From Escherichia coli 042 (lineage in GTDB: Bacteria > Pseudomonadota > Gammaproteobacteria > Enterobacterales > Enterobacteriaceae), in the NCBI RefSeq assembly GCF_000027125.1, contig NC_017626.1: a stretch of 64,000 bases of DNA. One strand, 5' to 3'. Numbering within the stretch: position 1 is the first letter of the stretch; every line of letters starts with the position of its first letter. The notes under the pieces were generated by a model. The model saw nothing but the letters and a program-made list of their open reading frames with translations. It was not told the DNA's origin and did no database searches. Of the stretch, positions 8,393 to 48,146 are shown one piece after another. The position numbers and the translations under genes were made by a program.

Positions 8393-8636
8393 GGGGGGTA
8401 ACAACTCCCGACGTAGTGATTAAAAAAACCAGGAAAGGAGTATACCTGCGCGGTGCGGCAAATACAGCCAGCGCGTTAACTGGAATGCAATTTTGCGGGG
8501 CGCGACGAAAAAAAAGCGCAAATCTGGCATCGGCTTGCCGCGAGCGGTCGTATATTTTGATCTTCAGAGGCTATTTTATCGATTCAGCTGTAGTAAAATT
8601 ACGCAAATTTTGACTCTTGAGTATGAGGTTGTCGCA

Positions 8637-10181
8637 ATGTCGGTTTCTAAAAAACCTATGGTACTGGTGATTCTGGATGGCTATGGCTATCGTGAAGAAC
8701 AGCAGGATAACGCCATTTTTAGTGCTAAAACCCCGGTAATGGATGCACTGTGGGCCAATCGTCCGCATACCCTGATCGACGCTTCCGGTCTGGAAGTTGG
8801 TCTGCCTGACCGTCAGATGGGTAACTCCGAAGTAGGTCACGTTAACCTGGGTGCCGGCCGCATCGTGTATCAGGACCTGACTCGTCTGGACGTTGAAATC
8901 AAAGATCGCGCTTTCTTCGCTAACCCGGTACTGACTGGCGCGGTAGATAAAGCGAAAAACGCAGGCAAAGCAGTTCACATTATGGGCCTGCTGTCCGCAG
9001 GCGGCGTACACAGCCACGAAGATCACATCATGGCGATGGTAGAACTGGCCGCTGAACGCGGCGCAGAAAAAATCTACCTGCACGCATTCCTTGACGGTCG
9101 CGACACTCCACCGCGCAGTGCTGAATCCTCGCTGAAAAAATTCGAAGAAAAATTTGCCGCGCTGGGCAAAGGCCGCGTAGCGTCCATCATTGGTCGTTAC
9201 TACGCCATGGACCGCGATAACCGTTGGGATCGCGTTGAAAAAGCTTATGACCTGCTAACTCTGGCGCAGGGTGAGTTCCAGGCCGACACCGCCGTTGCTG
9301 GTTTGCAGGCAGCTTATGCTCGCGACGAAAACGACGAATTCGTGAAAGCGACCGTTATTCGTGCAGAAGGTCAGCCAGACGCGGCAATGGAAGACGGCGA
9401 TGCGCTGATTTTCATGAACTTCCGTGCTGACCGCGCGCGTGAAATCACTCGTGCATTCGTGAACGCAGATTTCGATGGCTTCGCGCGTAAGAAAGTGGTT
9501 AACGTCGATTTCGTGATGCTGACCGAATACGCCGCTGACATCAAAACTGCGGTTGCTTACCCACCAGCGTCCCTGGTTAACACCTTCGGCGAGTGGATGG
9601 CGAAAAACGACAAAACTCAGTTGCGTATTTCCGAAACCGAAAAATATGCCCACGTTACTTTCTTCTTCAACGGTGGCGTAGAAGAGTCGTTCAAAGGCGA
9701 AGATCGCATTCTGATCAACTCACCGAAAGTGGCTACCTACGATCTGCAACCGGAAATGAGCTCCGCAGAGCTGACCGAAAAACTGGTTGCGGCAATCAAG
9801 AGCGGCAAATACGACACCATTATCTGTAACTATCCGAACGGCGACATGGTAGGTCACACCGGGGTGATGGAAGCGGCGGTTAAAGCGGTTGAAGCGCTGG
9901 ATCACTGCGTGGAAGAAGTCGCGAAAGCGGTTGAGTCCGTGGGTGGACAACTGCTGATCACCGCTGACCACGGTAACGCTGAACAGATGCGCGATCCGGC
10001 AACGGGTCAGGCACACACGGCACACACCAACCTGCCAGTTCCGCTGATTTACGTTGGTGATAAGAACGTGAAAGCGGTTGAAGGCGGCAAACTTTCTGAC
10101 ATCGCGCCGACCATGTTGTCGCTGATGGGTATGGAAATCCCGCAAGAGATGACTGGTAAGCCGCTGTTCATCGTGGAATAA
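8637..10181 (+). CDS. gpmM: 2,3-bisphosphoglycerate-independent phosphoglycerate mutase
   Basis: 514 aa from [20 protein letters not shown]; the longer ORF in the track starts upstream in frame. Confidence 0.93.
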
Positions 10182-19356: not shown

Positions 19357-20349
19357 ATGCGGGTTTTGATCGTTAAAACATCGTCGATGGGCGATGTTCT
19401 CCATACGTTGCCCGCACTCACTGATGCCCAGCAGGCAATCCCAGGGATTAAGTTTGACTGGGTGGTGGAAGAAGGGTTCGCACAAATTCCTTCCTGGCAC
19501 GCCGCTGTTGAGCGAGTTATTCCTGTGGCAATACGTCGCTGGCGTAAAGCCTGGTTCTCGGCCCCCATAAAAGCTGAACGGAAAGCGTTTCGTGAAGCGC
19601 TACAAGCAGAGAACTATGACGCAGTTATCGACGCTCAGGGGCTGGTAAAAAGCGCGGCGCTGGTGACGCGTCTGGCACATGGCGTAAAGCATGGAATGGA
19701 CTGGCAAACCGCTCGCGAACCACTGGCAAGCTTGTTTTACAATCGTAAGCATCATATTGCGAAACAGCAGCACGCCGTAGAACGCACCCGCGAACTGTTT
19801 GCCAAAAGTCTGGGCTATAGCAAACCGCAAACCCAGGGCGATTATGCTATTGCACAGCATTTCCTGACGAACCTGCCTACAGATGCTGGCGAATATGCCG
19901 TATTTCTTCATGCGACGACCCGTGATGATAAACACTGGCCGGAAGAACACTGGCGAGATTTGATTGGTTTACTGGCAGATTCAGGAATACGGATTAAACT
20001 TCCGTGGGGCGCGCCGCATGAGGAAGAACGGGCGAAACGACTGGCGGAAGGATTTGCTTATGTTGAAGTATTGCCGAAGATGAGTCTGGAAGGCGTTGCC
20101 CGCGTGCTGGCCGGGGCTAAATTTGTAGTGTCGGTGGATACGGGGTTAAGCCATTTAACGGCGGCACTGGATAGACCCAATATCACGGTTTATGGACCTA
20201 CCGATCCGGGATTAATTGGCGGGTATGGGAAGAATCAAGTAGAGTGTCGTTCTACAAGTATGTCTCTTGCAGATTTGCCAGCTCAAACCGTTTTTCAAAA
20301 TTTAAATCTTGAAATAATAACCAATAAGTTGACATCGGAGATAAGATGA
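19357..20349 (+). CDS. waaC: LPS heptosyltransferase I
   Basis: GT9 family; C-terminal residues differ from K-12 as remembered. Confidence 0.9.
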   Translation: MRVLIVKTSSMGDVLHTLPALTDAQQAIPGIKFDWVVEEGFAQIPSWHAAVERVIPVAIRRWRKAWFSAPIKAERKAFREALQAENYDAVIDAQGLVKSAALVTRLAHGVKHGMDWQTAREPLASLFYNRKHHIAKQQHAVERTRELFAKSLGYSKPQTQGDYAIAQHFLTNLPTDAGEYAVFLHATTRDDKHWPEEHWRDLIGLLADSGIRIKLPWGAPHEEERAKRLAEGFAYVEVLPKMSLEGVARVLAGAKFVVSVDTGLSHLTAALDRPNITVYGPTDPGLIGGYGKNQVECRSTSMSLADLPAQTVFQNLNLEIITNKLTSEIR

Positions 20350-21554
20350 CCTCAACATTATTTTTCTCTCTCGAGAAAAAAAACTGGATAGCGTACTGGA
20401 ACAGAGCTCTCGTATTCTTATTCATTACCACCTATTTTTTGGGTGGGATTACAAGGTATAAACATCTTATTGTTATTCTTATGACAATAACGACAATCGT
20501 CTATCTCTGCAAACGGCCAAAACACTATCTTTCACTATTTAAAACATGTCTTTTTGGTAGTGTTGCCATATTAACTATTGCTGCATTGCTATCACTTCTT
20601 CAATCCCCAGATGCAGGTGCTAGCATGAAGGAAATTTTCAAAGCTATCATTGAAAATACTTTACTATGCACAATAGCAATACCGGTCATATTGAGAGACG
20701 AGAAAAGAGAAGATGTCGAAAAAATCGTTTTCTTCTCATTTATAAGTGCGTTGGGCTTACGTTGTTTTTCTGAATTGATTGCCTATTATAAGGACTATCA
20801 ACAAGGGGTAATGCCATTTGCAGATTATAGACACCGTAGCATTTCTGACTCGATGGTCTTTTTATTTCCTGCATTGTTAAATCTCTGGCTTATCAAATCA
20901 GCAAAATACCGCATTTCTTTTGCGGTTCTAAGCGTTATTTTTATTTTTCTGATATTAGGAACTTTATCCAGAGGAGCCTGGCTTTCCGTGTTAGTCATTG
21001 GATTAATATGGATTCTGATGTTTAAACAATGGAAGTTACTATTAGTAGGAGTAATGGTTTCCATCATTGCATTATCGGTTATTTTCACACATAAGGAGAT
21101 GACCGCAAATCTAACGTATAAACTTCAACAAACTAATAGTTCTTATCGCTATGCAAATGGTACTCAAGGCAGCGCACTCGATCTAATATTAGAAAATCCT
21201 GTTATTGGTTACGGTTACGGTAACGTTGCATATAAAGATGTCTATAATAAACGTGTCGTTGATTATCCAGAATGGACCTTTAGACAATCGATAGGGCCAC
21301 ATAATTTTGCGCTATTCATCTGGTTTGGCACTGGTTTATTAGGGCTGATAAGTCTTATGATGCTATACTGCGCAATATTGAAAGAGTGTATAAAAAATGG
21401 CGTCCAGAATAAAAACCGCTCACCATATAATGCATATTATATAATCTTACTATCTTTTATAGGTTATTTTGTTATCCGTGGAAACGTAGAACAAATTGAA
21501 CCAAATTTATTAGGCGTTTACGCCGGCTTATTATTAGCAATGAAAAACAAGTAA
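20346..21554 (+). CDS. waaL: O-antigen ligase
   Basis: 402 aa AT-rich polytopic membrane protein after waaC. Confidence 0.85.
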   Translation: MTSTLFFSLEKKNWIAYWNRALVFLFITTYFLGGITRYKHLIVILMTITTIVYLCKRPKHYLSLFKTCLFGSVAILTIAALLSLLQSPDAGASMKEIFKAIIENTLLCTIAIPVILRDEKREDVEKIVFFSFISALGLRCFSELIAYYKDYQQGVMPFADYRHRSISDSMVFLFPALLNLWLIKSAKYRISFAVLSVIFIFLILGTLSRGAWLSVLVIGLIWILMFKQWKLLLVGVMVSIIALSVIFTHKEMTANLTYKLQQTNSSYRYANGTQGSALDLILENPVIGYGYGNVAYKDVYNKRVVDYPEWTFRQSIGPHNFALFIWFGTGLLGLISLMMLYCAILKECIKNGVQNKNRSPYNAYYIILLSFIGYFVIRGNVEQIEPNLLGVYAGLLLAMKNK

Positions 21555-21567
21555 AAAAAATAAAAAA

Positions 21568-21590
21568 GGCTGCATAATGCGGCCTTTTTA
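21568..21590. terminator. Bidirectional terminator between waaL and the convergent outer-core operon
   Basis: Hairpin GGCTGCA-TAA-TGCGGCC then TTTTTATTT. Confidence 0.6.
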
Positions 21591-21591
21591 T

Positions 21592-22734
21592 TTATTCAAA
21601 CCAATTATGAATGACCTCTTCGAATCTTTGAGTTACGCCATCCCAACTGTAGTGATCAAACACAAAATCCTGACCTTGCTTTGCAACTGCTGTTAATTCA
21701 GGATTCGCTAACGTTTTTAAAATATCGCTGCTTATGGAGTCTGCAGTCATAGGTTCTTTTAAATGGAATCCCGTAGTATTTTCTTTGACAAATTCCGTCA
21801 TCCCCCCACGCGTACTCACTAAAACAGGCTTACCAGCCCCCATAGCTTCAATTGCCACCATGCAAAATGGTTCCTGGAACTGGGAAGGAATGACAACTAA
21901 ATCTGCCAGTGGGTAATAACAATGCATCTTTTCAGGCGGTATGCTTCCTAACATAATGCAACGATCCTTCAAACGTTTTGCAATTTCCCTGACATTGTGT
22001 TGATATGCACCTTTGTCACTTTTACTCATTTCTGTATAATCACCAATCACAACTAATTTTAAATTTTTGTGAGCAACGGCCAATTTTTCGAATGATTGCA
22101 TCAACAGTAATATGCCTTTGTCAGGGACGATACGCCCAGCATAAAAAATAATTTTCTCTTCAGGGGAGATATTAAGTTCGCTTCTAGTGATCGGCTGAAA
22201 AGTAGATTGATAGGTTTCTAAATCAATTCCATTTGGTACAATCTCAATATCTGCATTTGCTAAATAAGATTGGTAATACTTTTTCAAGTATAAACTAGGC
22301 ACTATCATTTTAACATTTTGCTCAAGCAATTTTGGTTCAAATGCATTATGCATATGAATAACCACTCTTGCCTGAGGAGCTCGCTTACGAATTTGAGTGT
22401 ATAGCTTCATGCTATTATGAACTACAATAACACTTTCTTTCGTTATAGGAAAATCATGGGCAATATTCAATATTCTCTGTGAATATGGTAGAGGATCAAG
22501 TCTTGTCCATTTTTGAAATAACCGCTTATATATGCGACTGAATCCAACCCTATGAATACTACAATTATCATTAACAAAGGTGTAATTTGAGTATCCTGGA
22601 TTCTTGATACAAACAATGCGATTTGGGAAATTGGTACGCTGAGCAACCTGATACATCCACGTTTCAACAGCGGCCGCTCCGCGGGGAGGAATTGAAAAAA
22701 TAGGAGTAACTGTAAATATTATTTTATCAACCAT
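21592..22734 (-). CDS. Outer-core glycosyltransferase, GT4 family (WaaD-like of R3-type cores)
   Basis: 380 aa GT4-like sequence; last gene of the waaQ operon, convergent with waaL. Confidence 0.65.
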   Translation of the reverse strand: MVDKIIFTVTPIFSIPPRGAAAVETWMYQVAQRTNFPNRIVCIKNPGYSNYTFVNDNCSIHRVGFSRIYKRLFQKWTRLDPLPYSQRILNIAHDFPITKESVIVVHNSMKLYTQIRKRAPQARVVIHMHNAFEPKLLEQNVKMIVPSLYLKKYYQSYLANADIEIVPNGIDLETYQSTFQPITRSELNISPEEKIIFYAGRIVPDKGILLLMQSFEKLAVAHKNLKLVVIGDYTEMSKSDKGAYQHNVREIAKRLKDRCIMLGSIPPEKMHCYYPLADLVVIPSQFQEPFCMVAIEAMGAGKPVLVSTRGGMTEFVKENTTGFHLKEPMTADSISSDILKTLANPELTAVAKQGQDFVFDHYSWDGVTQRFEEVIHNWFE

Positions 22735-22742
22735 CTCGAATA

Positions 22743-23756
22743 TTAACCTTTCATAACATTATATTTAATTGCTGTAAAAACACCATTGAGAAATTTTTTC
22801 TGGTAAAGCAAGTGTTTATATTTTTCTTTGTACTCATGTTTTTTAACAGCTTTTTTATAAGGTATATTTCTCCATGGAGATATATTATAAATATTACGAA
22901 AATAATCTGCAGATGCGTAGTCCGCCCAATCATGCCATGGCTTAGTTACACCAGTATAATGTATGAAGACAGTTTCATCATTAATAAACTGGGTGTAATA
23001 TTCACTATTTTTTTCTTCAAATTCTGACTTTATAGTATAAATACAATTATATTTTCTCGGTAATATTTTAGCATGATGTAAAAACATTAAGTTTAAAATA
23101 TCTTGATCCGGATACTTTAATTTTTTGATAATTGACTCATCTGATAATAGATCAAAAAATTTCTCCGTTAGTCTTTGTTGTAACCATTCCCGTAAATTAA
23201 TATACATTACACCAGAGTTAAAATAGCTACCGTTAAAATCCTCATTACATAAACGCTCAGCGCTTTTACTTTGCATAGCATCTACATCAATTACCACAGC
23301 CCCATATTCATCTTTAAACTCTAATGCTATTAACTCGTTCAATGAACCCTTACAGACGATATCAGCATCAAGATATAATAATGAATCCAATCGCGCAGAA
23401 AAATAATCAAATGAAAGCAAACGATAATAAATAGATACTGGCCAGATATTTGATTGAGGTAGCGCCTTCAATGGCTCAGAATCAATATGATATAATTTAA
23501 TTACTGTTTGATACTTCGTTGCTAATTGTGATAATAATTCAATATACTCTTTGTCTAAGTAATCAGCGATTATGTGAAAGGTAAATTTGTTTTGTTTATT
23601 ATTTTCAAGAATTGAAGCAATTGAAATCGCAGCCCCAACCTGGTAGTTCTCATCAATACCCCATGAGACATTAAACGTTTCCCGTTCATCAAGTTTAACG
23701 GGGCGCTTGTCCAGTTCAATTATATCTTTAAATTGAGTAAGATGTTTAAAATCCAA
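22743..23756 (-). CDS. waaJ: Outer-core GT8-family glycosyltransferase (WaaJ-type)
   Basis: 337 aa GT8 (LgtC/RfaJ-like) fold; AT-rich. Confidence 0.7.
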   Translation of the reverse strand: MDFKHLTQFKDIIELDKRPVKLDERETFNVSWGIDENYQVGAAISIASILENNKQNKFTFHIIADYLDKEYIELLSQLATKYQTVIKLYHIDSEPLKALPQSNIWPVSIYYRLLSFDYFSARLDSLLYLDADIVCKGSLNELIALEFKDEYGAVVIDVDAMQSKSAERLCNEDFNGSYFNSGVMYINLREWLQQRLTEKFFDLLSDESIIKKLKYPDQDILNLMFLHHAKILPRKYNCIYTIKSEFEEKNSEYYTQFINDETVFIHYTGVTKPWHDWADYASADYFRNIYNISPWRNIPYKKAVKKHEYKEKYKHLLYQKKFLNGVFTAIKYNVMKG

Positions 23757-23780
23757 TTTAATTACCCTTCATCATAATCA

Positions 23781-24488
23781 TTATTTGCTCTTCAATCCTA
23801 GTTTTACTTTTACATCCCTGATTGCTTTTTTAATTTTCTTTTTGAATATGAGATATGTATAGCCAAAGTCTTTCAATTCATTTTTTATATTATAGTGCCG
23901 TTCAAGATCAATGCGATCTTTTGCTTTTAAAACTGCGGTTGTTTTTTTACCTGAAAGGTCAATTAGTCTTAAACCTTTTTCGGATACTATAAAATTTCCT
24001 TTATGAGGATCGCCAGACACCATTCCATGCTGATGCAACTCTTTTATCGATTCTGATAATTGTTCCTTCAGATCTTCAGAAATTTCCAAATACTCATTTA
24101 ACCCGACACCTTCAATATACTCAATGAGCATAATATAATAATGCGCGAAATTTAATGTTTTACGTTCAGCAAGCAAAAAATAGTCATTAATTGATTGAAT
24201 GCCTTCACCACGTACCCGATCGGTTTGATAAATTAAATTTTCATAATAATCTTTTTTTACGCAAGATTTTAAGAAACGTTCGATCATTTTATGCTTTGGC
24301 GCATAAACTTTAAGTACAAGAGGTCCACGAGCAGTGTCAATAAGAATGACTTTAGTATCATCAATAGAACGAAAAACTTTTAATGTTTTAACCCTGCAAG
24401 TTAAAAAGTCATTCAGCACTTGCTCATAAAAGGGATCATTATCTTTTATGAAAACTTTCAACCCATTTATCGTTTTATTATATATCAT
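23781..24488 (-). CDS. waaY: LPS core heptose II kinase
   Basis: 235 aa small kinase-like protein between two GT8 genes, as waaY is in waa clusters. Confidence 0.75.
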   Translation of the reverse strand: MIYNKTINGLKVFIKDNDPFYEQVLNDFLTCRVKTLKVFRSIDDTKVILIDTARGPLVLKVYAPKHKMIERFLKSCVKKDYYENLIYQTDRVRGEGIQSINDYFLLAERKTLNFAHYYIMLIEYIEGVGLNEYLEISEDLKEQLSESIKELHQHGMVSGDPHKGNFIVSEKGLRLIDLSGKKTTAVLKAKDRIDLERHYNIKNELKDFGYTYLIFKKKIKKAIRDVKVKLGLKSK

Positions 24489-24513
24489 AATGAATTATTT
24501 TAACCTTAAATCT

Positions 24514-25521
24514 TTAGAAGCATTTTTCTTTATAATACTTTAAATAATTAAAAATGCCTGCCATATAATGCTTTTGTTTAAATTTATGTTTTGCACAATA
24601 CCGATACTGATTGCTATTCACAGGTTTAAGTAAATCTTCTTTACACCACGGAGAAGCTGCTTTGGCGATCAAAAAACTACGTGACACCGGATAATCAGCC
24701 CACTCATGCCAGGGTTTTGTAGGTCCCACATAGTGTATAAACACGGTGTCATCATTGACTGGATTATCAACTTTGTCTTTTAATTCATAGTTAATACTAT
24801 ATCGGGTATTATATTTCCCCGAAATAAACTTCACTTTACCATTCAATAATACATTCAGTACATCTTGATCAAGGTGGGTGATTTTACTTACCCAATCTGG
24901 GTCACGCAACATTTCAATAGCTTTTGACGAAATGTTATTTAGATTCCACTCATCAATATTTATCAGCAAAAAACCAGCATTGAAATATCCAGAAGCTAAT
25001 TGTGGTGTAGTTAATACCGAGGCTCGATTCTGCCACCATTCAACATCTCTTTCAGCTACAACTGCGGCAATTTCATTAGTAGAGAATTGATAATCTAAGA
25101 GTTCTTTAATACTACCCTTGCAAGCAATATCTGCATCAAGGTATAGTATTTTTTCATGTTTATTATAGAAATAATCTGCAATTATAAATCGAAAATATGT
25201 AGCGTAAGTCCAGTTTTTCGTGCTTGGTAATGACTTCAGCTTATCACAATTGATAACATAAATATTAATTCTTGAATTATATTGTTTTGCTAAATCGGAA
25301 AAATATAACTTGTCTTTATCACTGATATAATCTGTGAAAACATGAAATTCACAAGAGATTTCGCTATTGTTTAATAGAATAGATGCGATGGCTACACCAC
25401 ATCCAAAAAGAAAATTTCTGTCAATACCAAATGCGATATCAAGAGTATTTTTAGATCTTATATTTTGATAATGAAAGTTATACTCAAAAAGGATGATGTC
25501 ACTATCATTGAGTTGAGACAT
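24514..25521 (-). CDS. waaI: Outer-core GT8-family glycosyltransferase (WaaI/WaaO-type)
   Basis: 335 aa GT8 sequence directly downstream of waaP. Confidence 0.7.
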   Translation of the reverse strand: MSQLNDSDIILFEYNFHYQNIRSKNTLDIAFGIDRNFLFGCGVAIASILLNNSEISCEFHVFTDYISDKDKLYFSDLAKQYNSRINIYVINCDKLKSLPSTKNWTYATYFRFIIADYFYNKHEKILYLDADIACKGSIKELLDYQFSTNEIAAVVAERDVEWWQNRASVLTTPQLASGYFNAGFLLINIDEWNLNNISSKAIEMLRDPDWVSKITHLDQDVLNVLLNGKVKFISGKYNTRYSINYELKDKVDNPVNDDTVFIHYVGPTKPWHEWADYPVSRSFLIAKAASPWCKEDLLKPVNSNQYRYCAKHKFKQKHYMAGIFNYLKYYKEKCF

Positions 25522-25563
25522 ATTTATTCTGTATCCAAAATTTTGGCAAAAATAAGTTACGGG

Positions 25564-26370
25564 TTACAACGATTTTCTAATCGTTCTTTCCCTGATTTTT
25601 GTGGCTTTTGCTTCTGCTTGCGACAGCAGTCCTTGTTCCTGCTTGAGAATGTCTTTAAGCGGGGCGGCAAAATACACTTTCATAAACCGCCAGATATCCC
25701 GCTGAGTCAGGCCAATATTCATCGAAGAAAAATAAAGCCCAATAAGATCTTTATCGCGCCAACGACGTGGAACGCGCGTGCGAAGCTGCGCCCGGTGCAG
25801 GTCAATTACCGAAATTTTTAACTCCTCTTCCTTACCGGAAAAAGGCAAGTGCAGCAGGAAATGACAGATATAACAGTCACGGTGGTTAATGCCCGCAGCA
25901 TGCATATCGCGCACCATCATCGCGACACGCTTAATAAGCATACGCTTTACGCGAACATCTGGAGGGTTAGTCGCCCAGTCAGCACAGTAATCTTCCAGAC
26001 TGATGGTTGGTGTCAGATCTTCGGTTATAATAAACGAGGTTCTGGTGAGCGGATTAATGCCTTTTTCGCCGAATGCCACCCCATACATAGTATCAACGCC
26101 GACATCCCGCAGTCGATGAATCGCATTCCATTCGCGGTCTGCGCCTAATACTGGCATCCGCAATGAGAGTAAATTTTTGATTATCTCTTTCAGGGTCGTG
26201 CCGCGATGCCATTTGAGAAAATAGCTTTTGCCCGCCATTTCAAAGCGCAGAGTACGGCGAGTTTCCAGTTCACGAAATACCTCACCCTGCAAAGTTTTAA
26301 CTTCCTCAAAAGGATCTTTTCCGCGCCATAACGTGGCAAACGGCTCTTTAAGTTCAACCATCCAGACCAC
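25564..26370 (-). CDS. waaP: LPS core heptose I kinase
   Basis: 268 aa, [21 protein letters not shown]... Confidence 0.9.
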
Positions 26371-27478
26371 CCGTTATGATATCCGCCGCTTTCTCTGGCA
26401 GACTGTATAAATCTTGTGTATCAGCATAATGTCGCGCATTTTCCGCCCAGGCCTGGCGCAATGAAGATTGCGTTAACGCTTTGCGTAAAATCTCATTCAA
26501 TGTTTCCTGGCGGAATGGCTCAGCAATAGCCTCGCCACAATTGGCCTCGACAATATAAGGCGCATAGCCACAAACGGCTGTTGTTAGTACCGGTAATCCT
26601 GCAGTAATCGCTTCCAGCAGCACAATTCCCGCCGCTTCCTGGTAGGCAGGATGCAGTAATAAATCCGCCGCCGCCATTAATTCCGAGACATCGTTGCGCC
26701 CCGAGAAGAAGTGAACATTACTGCGCACGCCGCGTTTTTCTGCCAGCGCCTCAAATTTTCGCGGTTTATCCTGCCCAACAACATATAGCAATGTGTTGTG
26801 GCGCAGCGAATCCGGTAACGAAGCAAGTGCTTCAATGGAACGATCGACACCTTTACGCGTGAAGTCTGAACCGACCTGCAACAATAAATATTGTTGTTCG
26901 GTTATTCCATTCTTCTTACGGAAGATTTCACGGCTATTGGCTGGCTGCTGGCTATATTTACGATCAGGATAAATCCCCGGTGGCAGAATATGAAAACGCT
27001 CCACTTCAGTCTGATAATGTTTCTGGAAATCGGCGATTTGCTTATCTGTCAGCATCAGCAGCTGTGTCGGCTTGCCCTGTTCGAAGGTTGCCCGCTCAAA
27101 GGCGGCATAATGGCGATAACGTGACGTCAGGCGATAGAAAAAGCCTTTTTCCTGCGCTACTTTCTCGGCATAACAAACATCAGCGGCATAATAAACGTCC
27201 AGCCCCGGCATTTTGTTGAATCCAACGACTTTATCGACGGGATGTTCGCGTAAATGTTTTTGCACCCAGGCAAAATACTCCGCATTGCGCCCGTGATTGG
27301 TATGCGATTTAACCGGCACTTTGATCAGTTCAAATACATCAGGGCATTCGCCTTCCCACGACTGGGCATAAACCCGAACATGATGACCTCGGGCGGCGAC
27401 TGTCTGAGCAATACGCATAAAATCGCGCTGCAAACCGCCAAAGGGAAAATATTTATATAAACAAAAAGCAACGATCAT
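26354..27478 (-). CDS. waaG: LPS glucosyltransferase I
   Basis: 374 aa GT4 sequence ([20 protein letters not shown]...). Confidence 0.92.
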
Positions 27479-28533
27479 AACGACGTACCTGTCGTGGAGG
27501 AGGGCAGTAATTTATCGACAGCAGCAATGACATCTGCCGCCGGAATAACCGAAAGATACATCTCATTTCGGTCACGCTGATCGCGCGTTGGCATTTCCCG
27601 GTAATCTCCCGCCCAGAATTGAATCATGTTATTTGACCAGGGACGCCAGAAAATATGGTCTGTCGCACCAAACAGCGATATCAGCGGCGTATTAACTGCA
27701 GCGGCAATATGCGCCGGTGCGGAATCAACGCCAATAAACAGCTGGGCATGATCGATTAACGCACCAAGTTCCGGGAAGGTCACCTTTCCAGCCAGCGCCG
27801 TTACTGGTGGCGTCTGGCATCCCTGCGCAATTTCATTGACGCAGACCAGATCGTCTTTATCTGGGCCGGACGTCAGAACGACTTCATAACCACGAGCATG
27901 TAAGGCATCAATCACAGCGGAAAACTTGGCGTTGTCCCAGCATTTGAAGATTTGCCGCGCCGTAGGTTGGATAACCACATAATTTTGTCCAACACCAGCG
28001 TGATCAAGTTCGCGACGCATACGTTTCCAGCTTGCAGGCGGGTAACTCATGGTTGTCTGCTTCACCAACGATTCAAGTCCCAATGGCGACAGCACGGATA
28101 AGTTACTTTCCACCACATTTCCCCCCTGCAACGGCACCAAATGAGTGAAACTATTACGCCAAAAAGCAGACTGCCGATGATGATAATCCTGGGAAATTTT
28201 CACACGGGCATTTAATAAGCGCACCAGTATAGCAACCATCCATTGATCGGTAAGATTAACGATAAGGTCATACTTATTGGCACGTAATACCTTGATGAGA
28301 TGAAAAAAGTTGGCAATTTTTTCTGCGGCTTTTGCTTTTTTATTTTTTATGCCGTAGAGCGCGTTAATCTCTGGATTTTCAGATAGGATCGGGATGGTGT
28401 CCTGATAAAGCAGCACATCGATTTTTGCGTCAGGGTAATTTTTTTTCAGCGAACTAATGACGGGAGTAGTTAATAACATATCCCCATGAAAACGCATCTT
28501 AATGAGCAAAATTCTTCGAAATGGCTTATCCAC
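27475..28533 (-). CDS. waaQ: LPS heptosyltransferase III
   Basis: 352 aa GT9 sequence; first gene of the waaQ operon. Confidence 0.9.
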   Translation of the reverse strand: MDKPFRRILLIKMRFHGDMLLTTPVISSLKKNYPDAKIDVLLYQDTIPILSENPEINALYGIKNKKAKAAEKIANFFHLIKVLRANKYDLIVNLTDQWMVAILVRLLNARVKISQDYHHRQSAFWRNSFTHLVPLQGGNVVESNLSVLSPLGLESLVKQTTMSYPPASWKRMRRELDHAGVGQNYVVIQPTARQIFKCWDNAKFSAVIDALHARGYEVVLTSGPDKDDLVCVNEIAQGCQTPPVTALAGKVTFPELGALIDHAQLFIGVDSAPAHIAAAVNTPLISLFGATDHIFWRPWSNNMIQFWAGDYREMPTRDQRDRNEMYLSVIPAADVIAAVDKLLPSSTTGTSL

Positions 28534-28582
28534 AAGTAACTCTTTTTGTTGAGATTATCCGATTAAGGTGAAGCAGAAAAAG

Positions 28583-28594
28583 CACGCTACCGCC
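28583..28594 (-). promoter_or_regulatory. ops element (GGCGGTAGCGTG) in the waaQ leader
   Basis: Plus strand reads CACGCTACCGCC, the exact reverse complement of the 12-nt ops RfaH-recruitment motif, about 50 bp upstream of the waaQ start. Confidence 0.8.
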
Positions 28595-28945
28595 CCAGGC
28601 TCAACAGCTACCTGAATACTGATACCGCACTGATATTGACGCGCTAGTGTATCACTTCTTTCGCGGCAATCCGACCCGAATGATTTTTAAGCACATTGTT
28701 GATTTTCAATAAAGAAATCAATCAAATAAAATCATTAGCAACTATATTCTTTTACTGTTGCTCTGCGATTCCTTCCTGCACGTACTGCAGAAATCAATGA
28801 ATCGCATAAAAATACAAAAAAAGTATAGATGTTCAGCAAGAATTGGCGGGTAAATTGCTATTTAAGTCAAAAACGGGAAAAGTAATGGTAAAGCCACAGC
28901 TAAATACATAGAATCCCCAGCACATCCATAAGTCAGCTATTTACT

Positions 28946-30710
<1,765 letters not shown>

Positions 30711-38053: not shown

Positions 38054-38077
38054 CGTGTACATAGAGGTGTACATAAT
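38054..38077. repeat. Left direct repeat (attL core)
   Basis: CGTGTACATAGAGGTGTACATAAT, 22 of 24 identical to the right repeat; itself a GTGTACATA tandem; more GTACA motifs follow at 38085–38108. Confidence 0.75.
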
Positions 38078-39394: not shown

Positions 39395-39489
39395 CTGAAT
39401 AGATTGAGCCTAGCTCGACGGGGCGAAAAGCGGGAAGCCTTACCGCCTGGCTCAATCACAAAATAAGGCGCAGCGTAAAAGGTGACGCA

Positions 39490-41928: not shown

Positions 41929-42103
41929 GCCGACAGGAACACCACAACCTCAAAAACGCTACAAAGATGCCCACGGAGCACTCGTTACTGTCGAAAGCGT
42001 GTCTCACAACCGAGTGACGTTTTATCGCGACGGGTATCAATCGCCATGCGTACAACCGCTGGCGCGCTTCATGAAGGAGTTCGCGGAGGTTAACAAATGC
42101 TAA
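41921..42103 (+). CDS. Small hypothetical island protein
   Basis: 60 aa from MFKPTG; its ATG overlaps the stop of the upstream gene. Confidence 0.45.
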   Translation: MFKPTGTPQPQKRYKDAHGALVTVESVSHNRVTFYRDGYQSPCVQPLARFMKEFAEVNKC

Positions 42104-43164
42104 CCGTCCAGAAGAAGATATTTTCACTGGCTGGTATGTCGCCAAAATCCAGCAATATGACAGCAAAGTCTGGCATTAATACAGCAGATGCAAGCAAAGT
42201 TTATCATTTTCTGGTGGTAGGAGCGGATGCCTTAACTATGTCAGAAATTACGGTCGATGGTGTTAGCGTTGAGAAGGTCGGCGGCTGCGCCAGAGAATTT
42301 CTGGTCGTAGATGGCTTTCTCTGCTCGCGTAGTGACTCCACAAAAACCTTCGTCCACACGCGCGACGTTAACGAAATGAGCGCGATGTATTGTGCATCTG
42401 GTGCTTCCAATAGTGAGTTTTCGGAGTCCATAAAAAAGAGCTTGCCGTTATGCGGCAACACGGTTTATGGTTATAAGGCACCTCATAAAACGGGTGCCGG
42501 GATTGGCGTCCTGGTAAATCGAATGGCGACATATGACGCGCCGAGCGTCTTTTTTTATGTCGTAGGTCTGACTCACCCATTTTTTGGGCGTTGGTGTATA
42601 ATCCAGCGCCTTTGTCAATCAATGGTGGCTCAGGCAGGGGCTTCTTCGGAAGCGCCGGTATCCATTCGAGCCGGTTACGCCAACCCTGTCTGGGCTACCA
42701 CCAGCGAAATTGGCGTTTCCGGTGGTAGCGTTACATGCTATCGAATGGAGGCTGCCACATGCTGGCTACTACCCCTACCCAAAAACCGCAATTTATCTGG
42801 ATTATCGCCGCAGTTCGCCGCGATTGCCCGACAATTACCGCCAAAATTCATCATATTGCTGCCGAGTCTGAACGCGATGCTCGCCGTTCTCTGGTGCGCG
42901 ATCACGTCTGCTTTTTTGCTGGTCGTATCCGCATGGAGGTGGCACATGATTAAAACCTACGATGTGCATATGGATCCCCTCGAACGCACAAGCCAGATCA
43001 TCACACTGACAGAAGTGATTAACGACATTCTGGTGAGCAACTCTCCCTCACGAGACGAAAGACTGAAGGCGTTACTCGCGATATTGGATCTCGCCGTTCG
43101 TGACGTTCATTTCCTGCTGGAAGGTGGCGAAATGCCAGGAAAAACGGGGGCAACCAATGAATAA
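42097..43164 (+). CDS. Hypothetical island protein; gene boundaries uncertain, possibly two genes read through in one frame
   Basis: 355-codon open frame with an ATGCTAA start overlap; its middle is overlapped by a more gene-like ORF in another frame and an internal ATG at 42946 overlaps that ORF's stop. Confidence 0.35.
42759..42953 (+). CDS. Small protein, possibly Icd-like cell-division inhibitor family
   Basis: [22 protein letters not shown]... in an alternative frame inside the 355-codon ORF; resemblance to Icd-like proteins is from memory. Confidence 0.4.
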   Translation: MLATTPTQKPQFIWIIAAVRRDCPTITAKIHHIAAESERDARRSLVRDHVCFFAGRIRMEVAHD

Positions 43165-43351
43165 CTCAATTAATGCCCCTCGACTTACGTCCGCACTTCA
43201 ATTAATCGAGCAAGCAGCGGCTGTCCTGGTTGCTGTCAGTCTTTCGGCTGAAGAAATGGACGCTGCTGATGTCGTGGATGCGATTAAAGCGTGCTCATCT
43301 TTGGTTAACGATGCCCGTGCAGAGCTGGTAATTCTTGGGGGTGAAAAATGA
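43157..43351 (+). CDS. Small hypothetical island protein
   Basis: 64 aa from [10 protein letters not shown]; start overlaps the upstream stop. Confidence 0.45.
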   Translation: MNNSINAPRLTSALQLIEQAAAVLVAVSLSAEEMDAADVVDAIKACSSLVNDARAELVILGGEK

Positions 43352-43611
43352 ATATCAACTTAATTTATCGTCATCCGTGTGAGCTGGAAATTGAATCATT
43401 GCTGAGTCGTGAAGAGCTATATCCAGACACATTCACTCTTGCAGATCGCACGACTGAACGGCTTACCAGAGCGCGCACAGGTCTGGTTCATGTGATGAAT
43501 GAGATTCTTCCATCGGTGGGAGGGGAACAGGCGACAGTAATCAATAGCTGGCTACAAAAAGTTACCTCCCTGATAGATATCAGTTTAATCGATGCGGAGA
43601 GTGCGAAATGA
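43348..43611 (+). CDS. Small hypothetical island protein
   Basis: 87 aa; ATGA start/stop overlap. Confidence 0.5.
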   Translation: MNINLIYRHPCELEIESLLSREELYPDTFTLADRTTERLTRARTGLVHVMNEILPSVGGEQATVINSWLQKVTSLIDISLIDAESAK

Positions 43612-43829
43612 CCAACATCCAGCTCATTGAAGCGCAATGTCGCATCGAACAGGTTCAGACTGTTTTAGGGTTCTGGCTTGAAGGGGCCAGCCCCAGCAAC
43701 AGAGACAAGTTAATGATTGGCGCGGTTATGTCACTGCTCAATGGCGTACCAGAAGCTATTCAGGAAGCAGACGAATTGTTGGGCAAATATGAGTTACAGA
43801 ATCATTCAGGCGAGGCGAAACATGAATAA
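43608..43829 (+). CDS. Small hypothetical island protein
   Basis: 73 aa; ATGA start/stop overlap. Confidence 0.5.
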   Translation: MTNIQLIEAQCRIEQVQTVLGFWLEGASPSNRDKLMIGAVMSLLNGVPEAIQEADELLGKYELQNHSGEAKHE

Positions 43830-44424
43830 TTTCTTAACCTTCCATGCAGAAGCAACGCCTGACGGCGTAAACATCATGCACCGCAGCAACGATGGCATGA
43901 CAGAACGCGTTGAGACCGTTTCATATATTGATGCCGTAAATCGTCTGGATGCCGGGGATTATGACGATAAACCAGATGAAGGTATGTCAATACATCTCGC
44001 TATTGCCGATGGCGGCAACCAGGGATATTTCGATTACACATCACAGCATAACGTCATTATGTGGAGATGGCTGATCGCAACAGTATTCATGCTGGAAATG
44101 AGAGAGGAAAACGGCACTGTCAGCATCATTGATGATACTGGCAATCCTTCCGAAGTGGCTGTTTATTCCAACGGCATCGTCGCCATGCCGCTGTATCCAG
44201 TAGCAGAGCGCCTCGCTATGGCAAACAACATTGAGGGCGCGATGATAGAACGTTTTGGCATCGAGTCTGGCACAGAACGCGCCATCATTTTCTACAGAGC
44301 CATGATGGATGTGGAACAAGGAGCACTGACTCCATTTGGTCGTGAAACGCTTGCTGAACTTCACAACAGCTTTATAGCTGAACTGAATGAAAACGGCATG
44401 CCAGCGGAACCAGTGACGCACTGA
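43822..44424 (+). CDS. Hypothetical island protein
   Basis: 200 aa from MNNFLTFHAEATPDG; start overlaps the upstream stop. Confidence 0.5.
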   Translation: MNNFLTFHAEATPDGVNIMHRSNDGMTERVETVSYIDAVNRLDAGDYDDKPDEGMSIHLAIADGGNQGYFDYTSQHNVIMWRWLIATVFMLEMREENGTVSIIDDTGNPSEVAVYSNGIVAMPLYPVAERLAMANNIEGAMIERFGIESGTERAIIFYRAMMDVEQGALTPFGRETLAELHNSFIAELNENGMPAEPVTH

Positions 44425-44434
44425 GGATGGATCC

Positions 44435-44776
44435 ATGATTACTAAAAATTTCCGACTGAATGCGCTGGCAAATAAGTATGCGTCGGCACTGTATAACCAC
44501 ATTACCTCCACCAGCGGCGGGGACTATTTCATGGTTCATGCGGACGGCGAGGCCGTCCGTGTGGAAATCGTCAATGGAGTAAAAGGCGTTCGCAGCCTGA
44601 TCGATAGCTACACACTGGCAGCCATGAAAGTGTTCTACCCGCAGTGGGAAACCGTGGGGATAGAGCTTCTTGATCGTTGCGTCACTAAGGACGGATTGAC
44701 TGACGTCGGGCGTGAGATATGGCAAAGCATGGTTAATGACATGGGCGCAACTGTAGCGGGAGGTTCTCATGCGTGA
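44435..44776 (+). CDS. Hypothetical island protein
   Basis: 113-aa ORF in the coupled gene string. Confidence 0.5.
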   Translation: MITKNFRLNALANKYASALYNHITSTSGGDYFMVHADGEAVRVEIVNGVKGVRSLIDSYTLAAMKVFYPQWETVGIELLDRCVTKDGLTDVGREIWQSMVNDMGATVAGGSHA

Positions 44777-45140
44777 AAATGCAGAAATGGCGCTTAGCTC
44801 CGCAATCGGAGAGCAGGTGGCAAAGATTGCTGGCGCTGTGTGGATTCATAACCTTCATTCTACTGGTGAAGAGAAAATGGCAATTCAGACGCCAGAGGGA
44901 CGCACCATTACTACATCTCTGAAGGCGTCAGATGTTTGTGATCTGATTTGCGCATTCATGTACCCAGCAATGAGGACTGTCCACGGCGATAAGTGGAAAC
45001 TTGCGACAACCGCTGAATTTGATATGTGGCTAAACAATGATGGCATGCTGACTGATTACGGAATAACCAAGTGGCAGATGCTGGTTAGCCATATCGCAAA
45101 CGCTATAGACCACGTGGGGTACGGTGATGCGAAACATTGA
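44769..45140 (+). CDS. Hypothetical island protein
   Basis: 123-aa ORF overlapping both neighbours. Confidence 0.5.
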   Translation: MRENAEMALSSAIGEQVAKIAGAVWIHNLHSTGEEKMAIQTPEGRTITTSLKASDVCDLICAFMYPAMRTVHGDKWKLATTAEFDMWLNNDGMLTDYGITKWQMLVSHIANAIDHVGYGDAKH

Positions 45141-47883
45141 TCTTATCCGCCAGGTTATCAGTGCGTCTGAAAACAACTGGCCTCATGTGCTGGGCTGCCT
45201 GAACATAAATGTCCCTGACTCTCCGCGCCGTCATGCTCCCTGCCCTGCATGTGGGGGCAAAGATCGATTCCGGTTCGATGACAACGGGCGCGGTAGCTTC
45301 ATCTGTAATCAGTGCGGCGCTGGTGATGGACTGGATTTAATTAAACGCGTAAATAACTGCGACACAACAGAGGCGGCGCTTCTTGCCGCTGATGTTCTGG
45401 GTATTGATTACCGGACAACGGAAACACCAGAAGCCACCAGCCAGAAACGGGAACAACTGGAAACCGAGCGCCAGCGACGCGAACAGGAGCGCCTGAAAAG
45501 GGCAGAGAAGGACGAACAACAAAGACGGGATACGTTTTCCCGTCAGTTTGATGACATGCGCAGAAAGGCTGTAAACGGCAAATCTGATTATCTGGTTGCG
45601 AAAGGGGTAGGTGATTTTACATTCCCCGTGTTGCCCGATGGATCTCTGTTGCTGGCGCTGGTGGATAAATCCGGCGCAGTAACAGCAGCACAGACTATTA
45701 CCTCACATGGTGAAAAAAGACTCCTGACAGGTTCAGCAAAGCGAGGGGCATATCACGCCATAAACGCACCAGAAACAACACAGAGCATCTTAATCGCAGA
45801 AGGGCTGGCAACGGCATTATCTGCCCATTTAATTCGTCCAGAGGCGCTGACAGTGGCGGCGATTGATGCCGGGAACCTGTTATATGTCGCCCAGGTACTG
45901 CGGGATAAATTTCCTTCAGCACAAATCATCATTGCTGCGGATAACGACCACAGCGAAGGAAGACAAAACACGGGGAGAATAGCAGCAGAAAAAGCAGCTT
46001 TATCTGTTTCTGGATGGGTGGCATTACCCCCGACAGATCACAAAGCAGACTGGAATGATTACCACCAAAAACACGGCATTAAATGCGCCACAGAAGCGTT
46101 CAATAAGTCAATGTACCAACCACAGGGTAATGGCGTGAAACAGGAGCCACAGACCATTGAGGGAAGCGATTTTAAGGTTATGGATACCGACCCACTGAAA
46201 CCAAGAATAGAAAGCCGCGAGGATGGTATTTATTGGGTATCTCCGAGAGCTGACAGCCAGAGTGGAGAAATCATCAATAACGAAAGCTGGTTATGTTCTC
46301 CGTTAAGCGTTATCGGTACTGGCAGAGACGATAAAGACCAGTATCTCATTCTTCGCTGGCTGTCGTTTGGTTCTGAAACGCCGACAACCGCTGCCATTCC
46401 ACTGGCTGATATTGGTGAACGTGAAGGATGGCGCACACTTAAAGCTGGTGGGGTAAATGTCACGACCAAAAGCAGCCTCAGAGCAATACTGGCAGACTGG
46501 CTACAACGCAGTGGCTCTCGTGAATTGTGGCGTGTTGCTCATGCCACTGGCTGGCAATGCGGAGCGTACATCATGCCTGATGGGGAAATCATCGGAACAC
46601 CTGAAAATCCTGTGCTGTTCAGCGGGAGAAGCTCAGCCGCAGCCGGATATACCGTCTCAGGGAGCGCGAAAAGCTGGCGTGATAACGTGGCGCGTCTGGC
46701 CTTTGGTAACTATTCAATGATGACCGGGATCGGCGCAGCACTGGCAGCGCCATTGATTGGGCTGGTGGGCGCTGACGGGTTCGGCATTCATTTCTATGAG
46801 CAGTCGAGCGCAGGTAAGACCACCACGGCAAACGTGGCGAGCAGCTTATACGGCAACCCTGATTTACTGCGGCTGACGTGGTACGGAACCGCGCTGGGGC
46901 TGGCAAATGAGGCCGCCGCCCACAATGACGGACTAATGCCGCTTGATGAAGTTGGTCAGGGCGCTGATCCTGTCAGCGTTTCACAGTCTGCCTATGCGTT
47001 ATTTAACGGTGTAGGGAAACTGCAAGGCGCTAAAGATGGTGGAAACCGGGATCTAAAACGCTGGCGTACAGTGGCAATCAGCACCGGAGAAATGGATTTA
47101 GAAACATTTATCGCTACTTCCGGGCGAAAAACCAAAGCCGGGCAACTGGTGCGACTGCTGAATATTCCGTTGAGTAAAGCAGTACGCTTTCACGATTACC
47201 AGAACGGAAAACAGCACGCAGACGCACTGAAAGACGCTTACCAGCATCACCACGGCGCAGCCGGGCGTGAGTGGATTAAATGGCTGGCAGACCACCAGCA
47301 ACAGGCAATTAAAACTGTTCGTGACTGCGAAAGCAGATGGAGAAGTCTGATCCCATCCGATTATGGTGAGCAGGTTCACCGTGTAGCCGCGCGATTTGCC
47401 ATTCTGGAGGCCGCATTGCTGTTAGGCGAGGTTGTAACAGGCTGGGATGCTCAGACATGCCGTGATGCGATACAGCACAGCTATAACGCATGGTTGCGCG
47501 AGTTCGGCACAGGTAACAAAGAACATCAGCAGATTATTGAACAAACGGAGGCATTTCTTAATGCCTATGGGCTTAGCCGTTTTGCACCATTTCCATACAG
47601 CCCGGCAGATTTGCCCATCAAAGATTTAGCCGGATACCGTCAGCGTGGAGAACATGACGAAAGCCCAATGATTTTCTACACATTCCCGGCCACATTTGAA
47701 AAGGAGATCGCATGTGGTTTCAACGCAAAACAGTTTGCTGAAGTGTTGAAAAAAGCCGGGATGCTAACCCCACCAAACAGCGGTCGTGGATACCAAAGAA
47801 AATCACCACGTATTCAGGGACGACAAATAAACGTTTATGTACTCAATTACCAGCCAGGAGATTACAACTCATCTGAAGAATGA
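45124..47883 (+). CDS. Primase / helicase replication protein (P4 alpha-like)
   Basis: 919 aa: N-terminal zinc-binding element (CPACGGKDRFRFDD...CNQCG), a central acidic primase-like region, and a C-terminal P-loop (SSAGKTTTANV). Confidence 0.85.
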   Translation: MMRNIDLIRQVISASENNWPHVLGCLNINVPDSPRRHAPCPACGGKDRFRFDDNGRGSFICNQCGAGDGLDLIKRVNNCDTTEAALLAADVLGIDYRTTETPEATSQKREQLETERQRREQERLKRAEKDEQQRRDTFSRQFDDMRRKAVNGKSDYLVAKGVGDFTFPVLPDGSLLLALVDKSGAVTAAQTITSHGEKRLLTGSAKRGAYHAINAPETTQSILIAEGLATALSAHLIRPEALTVAAIDAGNLLYVAQVLRDKFPSAQIIIAADNDHSEGRQNTGRIAAEKAALSVSGWVALPPTDHKADWNDYHQKHGIKCATEAFNKSMYQPQGNGVKQEPQTIEGSDFKVMDTDPLKPRIESREDGIYWVSPRADSQSGEIINNESWLCSPLSVIGTGRDDKDQYLILRWLSFGSETPTTAAIPLADIGEREGWRTLKAGGVNVTTKSSLRAILADWLQRSGSRELWRVAHATGWQCGAYIMPDGEIIGTPENPVLFSGRSSAAAGYTVSGSAKSWRDNVARLAFGNYSMMTGIGAALAAPLIGLVGADGFGIHFYEQSSAGKTTTANVASSLYGNPDLLRLTWYGTALGLANEAAAHNDGLMPLDEVGQGADPVSVSQSAYALFNGVGKLQGAKDGGNRDLKRWRTVAISTGEMDLETFIATSGRKTKAGQLVRLLNIPLSKAVRFHDYQNGKQHADALKDAYQHHHGAAGREWIKWLADHQQQAIKTVRDCESRWRSLIPSDYGEQVHRVAARFAILEAALLLGEVVTGWDAQTCRDAIQHSYNAWLREFGTGNKEHQQIIEQTEAFLNAYGLSRFAPFPYSPADLPIKDLAGYRQRGEHDESPMIFYTFPATFEKEIACGFNAKQFAEVLKKAGMLTPPNSGRGYQRKSPRIQGRQINVYVLNYQPGDYNSSEE

Positions 47884-47908: not shown

Positions 47909-48019
47909 GTTGGTTCAGTTGGTTCAGTTGGTTCAATTTGTAAAGAGTATTGTTTTATAAGGATTTTATTCTTTTTATTGAACCAACACTGAACCAACAA
48001 CACGGTATTTTGAACCAAC
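47909..48019. repeat. Iteron cluster 1, candidate replication origin
   Basis: Three tandem GTTGGTTCA 9-mers (47909–47935), an AT-rich spacer, then three spaced inverted TGAACCAAC copies (47979–48019), directly after the primase gene. Confidence 0.8.
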
Positions 48020-48069: not shown

Positions 48070-48146
48070 TTTTACGAGACTTTCGTAAAATCCTGTGTAC
48101 AAGGGCGTGACGTTTTTGAAAGTGAGCACTACGAAATTTTCGTAGT
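48070..48146. promoter_or_regulatory. Pair of related palindromes, candidate operators
   Basis: TTTTACGAGACTTTCGTAAAA (48070–48090) and the perfect 19-bp palindrome ACTACGAAATTTTCGTAGT (48128–48146); shared TACGAAA half-site. Confidence 0.45.

Follow-up and report, generated by a model that had tools for sequence, protein, structure and literature searches.

The window analysed here is a 64,000-nucleotide (nt) stretch of contig NC_017626.1 of Escherichia coli 042, numbered from its first letter, and it contains a 19.9-kb island that is an EcCIMP1-like phage-inducible chromosomal island (PICI), a phage satellite. Our subject is a string of six small plus-strand genes in this island that leads into the gene of a primase/helicase: o64 (43157-43351; 64 amino acids, aa), o87 (43348-43611; 87 aa), o73 (43608-43829; 73 aa), o200 (43822-44424; 200 aa), o113 (44435-44776; 113 aa) and o123 (44769-45140; 123 aa). 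All six appear in the list of open reading frames (ORFs) of the window, and each is a RefSeq coding sequence (CDS) in E. coli U15A, where the block is 100% identical and RefSeq calls exactly these six CDS, all as hypothetical proteins. An earlier reading made from the letters alone, without database searches (hereafter the sequence-only reading), had described six small overlapping ORFs on one strand that run into the primase gene, and this description is borne out by ORF coverage relative to shuffled sequence, by Shine-Dalgarno matches and by conserved gene order, all given below. Its statement that the genes are joined with no intergenic space stands for the ATGA overlaps of o64 with o87 and of o87 with o73 (4 nt each), for the 8-nt overlaps of o73 with o200 (ATGAATAA) and of o113 with o123 (ATGCGTGA), and for the 14-nt overlap of o123 with the primase gene, but it is wrong at one junction, because o200 and o113 do not overlap and are separated by a 10-nt spacer.

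As to the extent of the string, the six genes are real, but the chain to which they belong begins two genes earlier, and the RNA-gated start that this chain appears to possess was overlooked in the sequence-only reading. The first cistron is an Icd-like ORF (42759-42953, plus strand; 64 aa; NCBIfam NF033153, E = 5e-20), which is annotated as such in other strains. The second is o72 (42946-43164, plus strand; 72 aa), which has the Shine-Dalgarno sequence GGAGGTG, is called as WP_001582517.1 by the Prokaryotic Genome Annotation Pipeline (PGAP) in strain DJH_183, and has an 8-nt overlap with both the stop of icd and the start of o64. The full chain is one of nine cistrons, namely the icd-like ORF, o72, o64, o87, o73, o200, o113, o123 and, as the last, the primase/helicase gene (45127-47883, plus strand; 918 aa, with Zn-ribbon, Toprim and DUF927 regions according to Pfam and PHROGs), whose start is ATG 45127 or GTG 45124. 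A terminator scan returned no plus-strand terminator-like site in 42550-46770, and a promoter scan no plus-strand promoter-like site in 43157-45140. Plus-strand ORFs cover 99.6% of 42759-45140; in 500 dinucleotide shuffles, coverage averaged 35% and never exceeded 68%. A Shine-Dalgarno match of at least 4 nt is found at 7 of the 9 start codons of the chain versus 11 of 64 control ATGs. There are no internal stops in the examined alleles of the string genes, and the ratio of nonsynonymous to synonymous polymorphism (pN/pS) among E. coli alleles, with few substitutions behind each figure, is 0.14 for o64, 0.51 for o87, 0 for o73, 0.11 for o200, 0.10 for o113 and 0.64 for o123.

The first two cistrons are hidden in the annotation of the island. 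Both the Icd-like ORF and o72 (for which pN/pS among E. coli alleles is 0.25) are buried in an annotated 355-aa 'ash family' ORF (42097-43164), and PGAP annotates the two as separate genes in another strain. The match of the 'ash' ORF to Pfam PF10554 (Phage_ASH) covers residues 124-232, equivalent to nt 42466-42792, and lies on top of two RNA genes, of the isrK and C4 families. This 355-aa ORF is very probably an artefact, and 'ash family protein' and PF10554 appear to be translations of the isrK and C4/CI RNA genes. PF10554 has served as the 'epsilon' marker in a survey of P4-like satellites (PMC8628076), yet the true P4 epsilon family is PF25738, not PF10554; in the present island the marker is found, but on the RNA genes. 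The obsolete P4 'cI gene product' ORF (L025 8168-8584) likewise carries its PF10554 match over the CI RNA. For annotation, the consequence is that the 'ash' and PF10554 labels mask two real small genes.

Upstream of the Icd-like ORF we find two RNA genes and a target region, all on the plus strand. An isrK-type leader RNA (42478-42555; Rfam RF01394, 67.1 bits), the equivalent of seqA in P4, ends with an intrinsic terminator in the terminator scan (stem at 42535-42549, then a U-run) and holds copies of both antisense targets, TTGGCGT at 42503-42509 and TCGAATGG at 42519-42526. It is followed by a C4/CI-type antisense RNA (42618-42705; Rfam RF01695, 79.5 bits, full length), with loop b reading TCCATTCGA (42661-42669) and a single-stranded element a reading ACGCCAA (42677-42683). 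Beyond this RNA, a region recognised by its complementarity to C4 (42710-42751) corresponds to P4 seqC: its site a is TTGGCGT (42710-42716), and its site b, TCGAATGGA (42741-42749), overlaps the GGAGG Shine-Dalgarno sequence of the Icd-like ORF (42747-42751). Loop b is complementary both to this icd site and to the leader copy TCGAATGG, and element a is complementary to TTGGCGT at both of its positions, downstream and in the leader.

The same pairing logic recurs in related elements. Rfam matches to isrK and C4 are present in the window, in 8 related loci and in P4 itself, and our comparison covered these 10 elements (the window, eight related islands and P4), which represent 9 specificities. 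Loop b pairs with the Shine-Dalgarno site of its own icd over 8-12 contiguous base pairs (bp) across the 10 elements, while non-cognate pairs mostly reach 3-7 bp; the few high off-diagonal pairings (7-9 bp) involve elements with identical or near-identical loops. Furthermore, element a co-varies with its target across elements, in four variants. These patterns provide direct sequence evidence that the C4-type RNA targets the head of the chain, and both homology and covariation speak for a predicted gate at the Icd-like cistron.

At the other end of the string, o200 is the gene for which a function can best be suggested. Its AlphaFold2 (AF2) model (predicted local distance difference test score, pLDDT, 93) consists of two domains: a beta3-alpha2 N-domain (residues 1-66) and a helical C-domain (residues 74-191; alpha, beta3, alpha, alpha, alpha, with a beta-hairpin insert). 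The fold found no match among solved structures or, with Foldseek against BFVD, among viral ones. The protein belongs to phrog_1515, and its homologues form 550 clusters at 90% identity and 123 at 50% identity; some that are 30-36% identical are encoded in early-left operons, namely those of phiP27, Stx phages, Klebsiella prophages, CharmingMan, phi467 and EKP1. With hhalign, the family matches ORF106 of P4 (cnr; Pfam DUF5375, phrog_5991) with a probability of 87% and P = 3.7e-6 over o200 residues 76-186, and phrog_5991 is matched by 28 of 56 members of the o200 family (best E = 1.2e-8). Each of the 15 related loci has o200 immediately before the primase gene, or with nothing but o113/o123 in between. 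Cnr is reportedly a regulator of P4 replication. The cnr gene, which 90% of P4-like elements possess, is situated between epsilon and alpha, and plasmid copy number is under its control (PMC8628076). The match suggests that the o200 C-domain is related to ORF106 (Cnr) and may act in replication control, and with this Cnr-related domain and its fixed place by the primase gene a replication accessory is the better guess for o200; the protein would then modulate primase or origin activity and so control copy number or replication, much like Cnr with alpha in P4. As a separate observation, 12 of the 56 family members also match phrog_1737. In Cedecea, an ORF of this family (126 aa; L023 6378-6755) lies just upstream of the o200 homologue, and the family may be a further relative of the Cnr-like domain. 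A scan of viral contigs for further Cnr relatives returned only sequences that are at least 90% identical.

The two genes between o200 and the primase gene are less widespread. The first, o113, belongs to phrog_37628 (125 clusters across Enterobacterales), adjoins the o200 homologue in phi467 and EKP1, and is optional among islands, whereas only 15 clusters of o123 are known in total. The o113 model (AF2, pLDDT 90) is a single domain with the order alpha, beta2, alpha, alpha, alpha and, as in the o200 C-domain, a small beta-bridge before the last helix. In hhalign comparisons, o123 matches o113 with P = 4e-4 over 92 columns, and the two families align colinearly, with five invariant residues, in MAFFT; o113 against o200 gives a weak signal (P = 0.0025) with a common LT..GRE motif, and o113 against Cnr directly is negative. 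It is probable from these alignments that o113 and o123 are paralogues. Both share the order of secondary-structure elements with the o200 C-domain, and their link to the Cnr-like domain is weaker; as single-domain relatives of o200, they would probably act on the same replication machinery.

The primase into which the chain runs is itself mosaic. The same N-terminal Zn-ribbon/Toprim part of ~340 aa is joined, in E. coli islands, to DUF927, DUF5906 or P4-family C-terminal modules (window 45127-47883 compared with 5449-7800 and 6320-8761 of the sister islands L006 and L007, respectively), and within E. coli the same o64-o200 block feeds DUF927, DUF5906 or P4-type primases. Just after the primase stop codon lies a probable replication origin (47909-48019, no strand assigned), comprising three copies of GTTGGTTCA, an AT-rich spacer and three inverted copies of TGAACCAAC; the origins of PICIs of Gram-negative bacteria (GN-PICIs) likewise lie downstream of pri (PMC10111431). 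Additionally, a 22-mer, AGTTTTCGGAGTCCATAAAAAA, occurs just upstream of the isrK leader (42416-42437) and twice downstream of the primase gene and origin (48135-48156 and 48292-48313), an arrangement that recalls the split ori/crr of P4.

A genome scan with an alignment of 10 o200-family sequences yielded the 15 related loci, which are spread over more than 10 genera of Enterobacterales (Escherichia, Kluyvera, Shimwellia, Kosakonia, Enterobacter, Lonsdalea, Klebsiella, Erwinia, Rosenbergiella, Cedecea, Xenorhabdus and others); an integrase match is present in 13 of them. Loci that reach far enough upstream have a common order, consisting of int, alpA, a 143-aa ORF, (AntA), DUF4222, isrK, C4, icd, small ORFs, o200, (o113) and primase, and nearly all of the junctions in their chains are overlaps of 4 or 8 nt. 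Conservation across related islands, which the sequence-only reading had proposed as a check, holds for part of the string: o200 is fixed by the primase gene, and o87 and o73 recur, but o64 and o123 were seen in Escherichia only. For o87, 10 other loci from various genera have a homologue, and in most related islands the gene follows icd immediately; for o73 (phrog_20558, a phage family, E = 2.9e-9), homologues immediately precede o200 in Enterobacter, Lonsdalea, Erwinia and Rosenbergiella. The gene o72, which takes the position of epsilon in P4, was seen in Escherichia and once in Rosenbergiella, in the same slot. Other lineages carry at least five further small families in this stretch, and natural E. 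coli variants that lack both o113 and o123 exist.

None of the six ORFs had been recognised in the sequence-only reading, and indeed none has a curated family match in Pfam, NCBIfam or PADLOC, the last returning noise only (E ≥ 0.009); PDB searches by sequence, whether with a single protein or with a profile as query, gave no match for any of them. For o64, o87, o73 and o72, there is no match to a family of known function in Pfam, PHROGs, NCBIfam, PADLOC or PDB, and Pfam and hhalign comparisons find them unrelated to P4 epsilon and ORF151. All-vs-all blastp and hhalign comparisons were also negative for the idea that the small helical proteins are paralogues of one another or relatives of epsilon or ORF151, which we reject, the sole exception being a weak hhalign signal (probability 39%) between o73 and the 'LEQAAE family'. 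Neither the six genes nor o72 occur in any of 80 P4-like viral contigs, and a literature search found the PHROG and WP identifiers of these proteins mentioned nowhere. The genes o64, o87, o73 and o72 are lineage-variable cassette genes in the slot that epsilon and ORF151 occupy in P4, and a putative role in helper or host manipulation is our guess by analogy.

Taken as a whole, we lean with modest confidence towards a reading in which the six ORFs form the middle of a nine-cistron, RNA-gated early (replication) operon of an EcCIMP1-type island, with o200 as its putative Cnr-domain gene. The operon is probably held off by an antisense RNA at its first gene, to judge from sequence and from analogous loci. 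In the resident state, the C4-type RNA would block translation of icd and/or trigger premature termination, and the loss of translation at the head would silence everything through the primase gene by translational coupling and Rho polarity. Such a block could act over the whole chain because later starts overlap or abut preceding stops and no internal promoter or terminator was found; the start/stop overlaps would relay whether the first cistron is on or off as far as the primase gene, and helper induction through AlpA would open the whole string at once. This model of a spreading gate is drawn from c4-icd-ant of P1, CI of P4 and isrK-orf45-anrP of Salmonella. In P1, c4 RNA reportedly blocks icd translation, after which Rho terminates transcription before ant. 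In P4, CI RNA pairs with seqA and seqC, and transcription of the replication genes terminates prematurely (PMC4825925), while experiments on the Salmonella isrK locus found that coupling across an AUGA overlap is required for expression of the downstream gene (PMC4825925). Rfam matches to C4 and isrK in GN-PICIs have been noted earlier (PMC10111431).

Several alternative explanations may be considered for these data. Overlapping genes are frequent in phage operons, and the gate could consist of premature transcription termination in the leader alone, the overlaps reflecting genome compaction without any regulatory role. An intrinsic terminator does close the isrK leader, and transcription termination is what has been reported for the CI RNA of P4 (PMC4825925); however, the co-varying site b covers the Shine-Dalgarno sequence of the first ORF, and not the terminator, in 10 of 10 elements, coupling across the AUGA overlap is needed at the homologous isrK locus (PMC4825925), and the 8-nt overlap grammar has been kept from P4 to the present island, so that we consider termination alone rather unlikely. 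It is less likely still that the six genes are a helper-interference or anti-defence cassette, each product targeting a component of the helper phage or of host defence, as the sequence-only reading had supposed for blocks of this kind. The front genes o72, o64, o87 and o73 and their alternative families are swapped between lineages like accessory cassettes and occupy the epsilon slot of P4, homologues of o200 and o113 lie among anti-repressors in the early-left operons of temperate phages, and superinfection by Kapi1, the P22-like helper of EcCIMP1, is affected by EcCIMP1 genes. Yet the six show no resemblance to epsilon (PF25738), to ORF151 or to any family of known function, PADLOC offering nothing above noise for an anti-defence match, and for o200 in particular helper interference looks unlikely given its apparently Cnr-related domain and its place beside the primase gene in 15 of 15 loci. 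A narrower proposal, which we regard as doubtful and put forward tentatively, is that the stretch from icd to the Cnr-like gene is a hotspot of interchangeable small effectors, released by the gate and acting on helper or host as analogues of epsilon with new folds; derepressors or anti-repressors aimed at P22-like helpers would be examples, as would anti-defence proteins. On this view, the o200/o113/o123 triplet of Cnr fold could likewise constitute a diversified set of initiator modulators.

The opposite extreme, in which each of the six serves the primase/origin machinery, as accessory subunit or as regulator, and the string is purely a replication module, seems to us very improbable. All six are predicted to be co-transcribed with the primase gene and feed into it, o200 is probably related to Cnr, and o113 and o123 share the element order of its C-domain; nevertheless, o72, o64, o123 and o113 can be missing from natural variants whose primase is unchanged, the same small genes accompany three primase C-terminal modules, and the small proteins are without homology to any replication protein. 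Homology to replication accessory proteins, which the sequence-only reading had named as the outcome that would overturn its view if found for all six, is present in o200 and possibly in o113 and o123, and does not extend to all. That some or all of the ORFs are untranslated chance reading frames is hardly credible: curated family matches are lacking for all six and pN/pS is high in o87 and o123, but ORF coverage lies far above the shuffle maximum, most starts have a Shine-Dalgarno sequence, protein homologues keep their order across many genera and phages, and the AF2 models of o200 and o113 are confident.

A number of observations count against the gated replication operon that we favour. 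Gating and coupling would follow from sequence and from the precedents of P1, P4 and Salmonella, and the coupling may not be the operative step, because P4 CI mainly terminates transcription. ORF106 is presumed to be cnr, a negative regulator of P4 replication acting on alpha. Compared individually, the o200 of the window is colinear with phrog_5991 at E = 0.02 and has no match to Pfam DUF5375; at 200 aa it is twice the size of Cnr, with the extra N-domain and beta-hairpin insert, and the link between o113 and o200 is weak. Cnr is said to act on the C-terminal DNA-binding domain of alpha, and since o200 is paired with primases of three different C-terminal modules, this weighs against a Cnr-like role. 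Moreover, the phage homologues of o200 and o113 stand in early-left operons and not beside a primase gene, and the high pN/pS values of o87 (0.51) and o123 (0.64), although based on very few changes, do not help. Finally, the demonstrated master switch of EcCIMP1 is AlpA (PMC11773190).

The island that carries the operon is located between yicC and yicG. A 24-nt direct repeat, 92% identical between its copies at 38054-38077 and 57959-57982, probably represents attL and attR; the copies are 19,905 bp apart, close to the 19,963 bp of EcCIMP1. From the left, the island contains an integrase gene, the int-alpA RNA, AlpA, a 143-aa ORF, an AntA antirepressor and DUF4222, followed by the RNA/Icd region, the string, the primase gene, the iteron-type origin, P22-type ejection genes, PerC and Doc. 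That the island is a satellite, a kind of element mentioned alongside prophages in the sequence-only reading, is supported by this order, which matches EcCIMP1 gene for gene. The block is matched in 560 of 5426 complete E. coli genomes, 251 of which carry at least 80% of it. Other features of the island and its surroundings were noted in passing. The int-alpA RNA (39403-39469; Rfam RF02996, 60.6 bits) lies between the integrase gene and the next gene and occurs also in five related loci. The P22-type set (48646-53304) consists of DUF2824, a 225-aa ORF, a 'phage DNA ejection protein' and a 701-aa ORF, and the sister islands L006 and L007 share the early block but lack this set or have other modules. 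The idea that o72 and o64 track the P22-type ejection module was rejected, as L006 has o72 and o64 without the module. At the right end are a PerC-family regulator (the EcCIMP1 homologue of which is reported as repressing the enterocyte-effacement locus, LEE) and, next to a 337-aa ORF, a toxin of the Doc (death-on-curing) kind (55567-55854 and 56267-57750). Elsewhere in the window, a stretch of low GC content (30-41%) at 20000-29000, with a JUMPstart sequence at 28583-28621 on the minus strand, is assumed to be a lipopolysaccharide (LPS)-core (waa) type cluster unrelated to the island.

EcCIMP1 of E. coli MP1, the closest relative among described elements, is excised and transferred only with the P22-like helper Kapi1, and requires AlpA, as has been found experimentally (PMC11773190). 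The two islands, each of about 20 kb, have in common int, alpA, the 143-aa ORF, AntA, DUF4222, 'Ash'/Icd, the six ORFs, the Toprim-DUF927 primase, P22-type ejection genes and PerC; the accessions are the same for the o64 and o73 proteins, and the remaining four proteins are near-identical. They differ in integrase and site, EcCIMP1 being at tRNA-Thr near proA, and in their right-end cargo, which in the present island includes the Doc toxin. The authors of the EcCIMP1 description leave the same six ORFs hypothetical (Pick, Stadel & Raivio 2025; PMC11773190), do not discuss an RNA gate, and give no annotation of the six that we could find in the supplements. A P4-type, RNA-gated chained operon may serve as a concrete model for EcCIMP1-like satellites, in which every early gene carries a hypothetical label. 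As long as the small proteins lack functions, the gain for biology is modest; it would grow should the variable small genes turn out to be new effectors directed at helper or host.

Comparison with satellite P4 indicates, on sequence grounds, that the regulatory front end of the island is homologous to that of P4. In P4 the layout is isrK/seqA, CI (C4) RNA, an icd-like ORF, epsilon, ORF151, ORF106 (cnr) and alpha, in which the icd-like ORF (8168-8365) immediately follows the CI RNA, groups with the Icd family and is found in 79 of 80 P4-like viral contigs. Both elements have the two Rfam RNAs in the same order with the same logic of loop-to-target complementarity, an icd-like first ORF followed by genes with 8-nt start/stop overlaps (in P4, 8 nt between the icd-like ORF and epsilon and 8 nt between epsilon and ORF151), and a gene for a Cnr or, in the island, a putatively Cnr-related domain upstream of a Zn-ribbon/Toprim primase, from which ORF106 is separated in P4 by a gap of 14 nt. 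By contrast, epsilon and ORF151 are replaced in the island by the unrelated o72, o64, o87 and o73, its Cnr-like protein is the longer, 200-aa form described above, and the C-terminus of its primase is DUF927, not of the P4 type. Furthermore, psu, sid and delta are not annotated in the island and the epsilon family PF25738 was not found there, so that by these markers it is not itself a P4-like satellite.

The immI regions of P1 and P7 (c4, icd, ant) resemble the island in having a C4-family RNA upstream of its own target and complementary to an icd-type ribosome-binding region, and in P1 and P7 the icd-type first cistron is reportedly coupled to the genes downstream. The cargo differs, as the island's consists of small ORFs and a primase and not of an antirepressor, its AntA-type gene lying upstream of the RNA. 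The isrK-orf45-anrP locus of Salmonella Gifsy-1 likewise begins with an isrK-family leader followed by a small ORF, and its AUGA coupling is experimental (PMC4825925); there, however, it is a short IsrK RNA that acts in trans as an activator of translation, and the cargo consists of an antirepressor, with no primase operon (PMC4825925). With P4 the island shares isrK/C4, the icd-like ORF and a probable Cnr-domain gene beside the primase gene, a common front end that links the PICI and P4 lineages.

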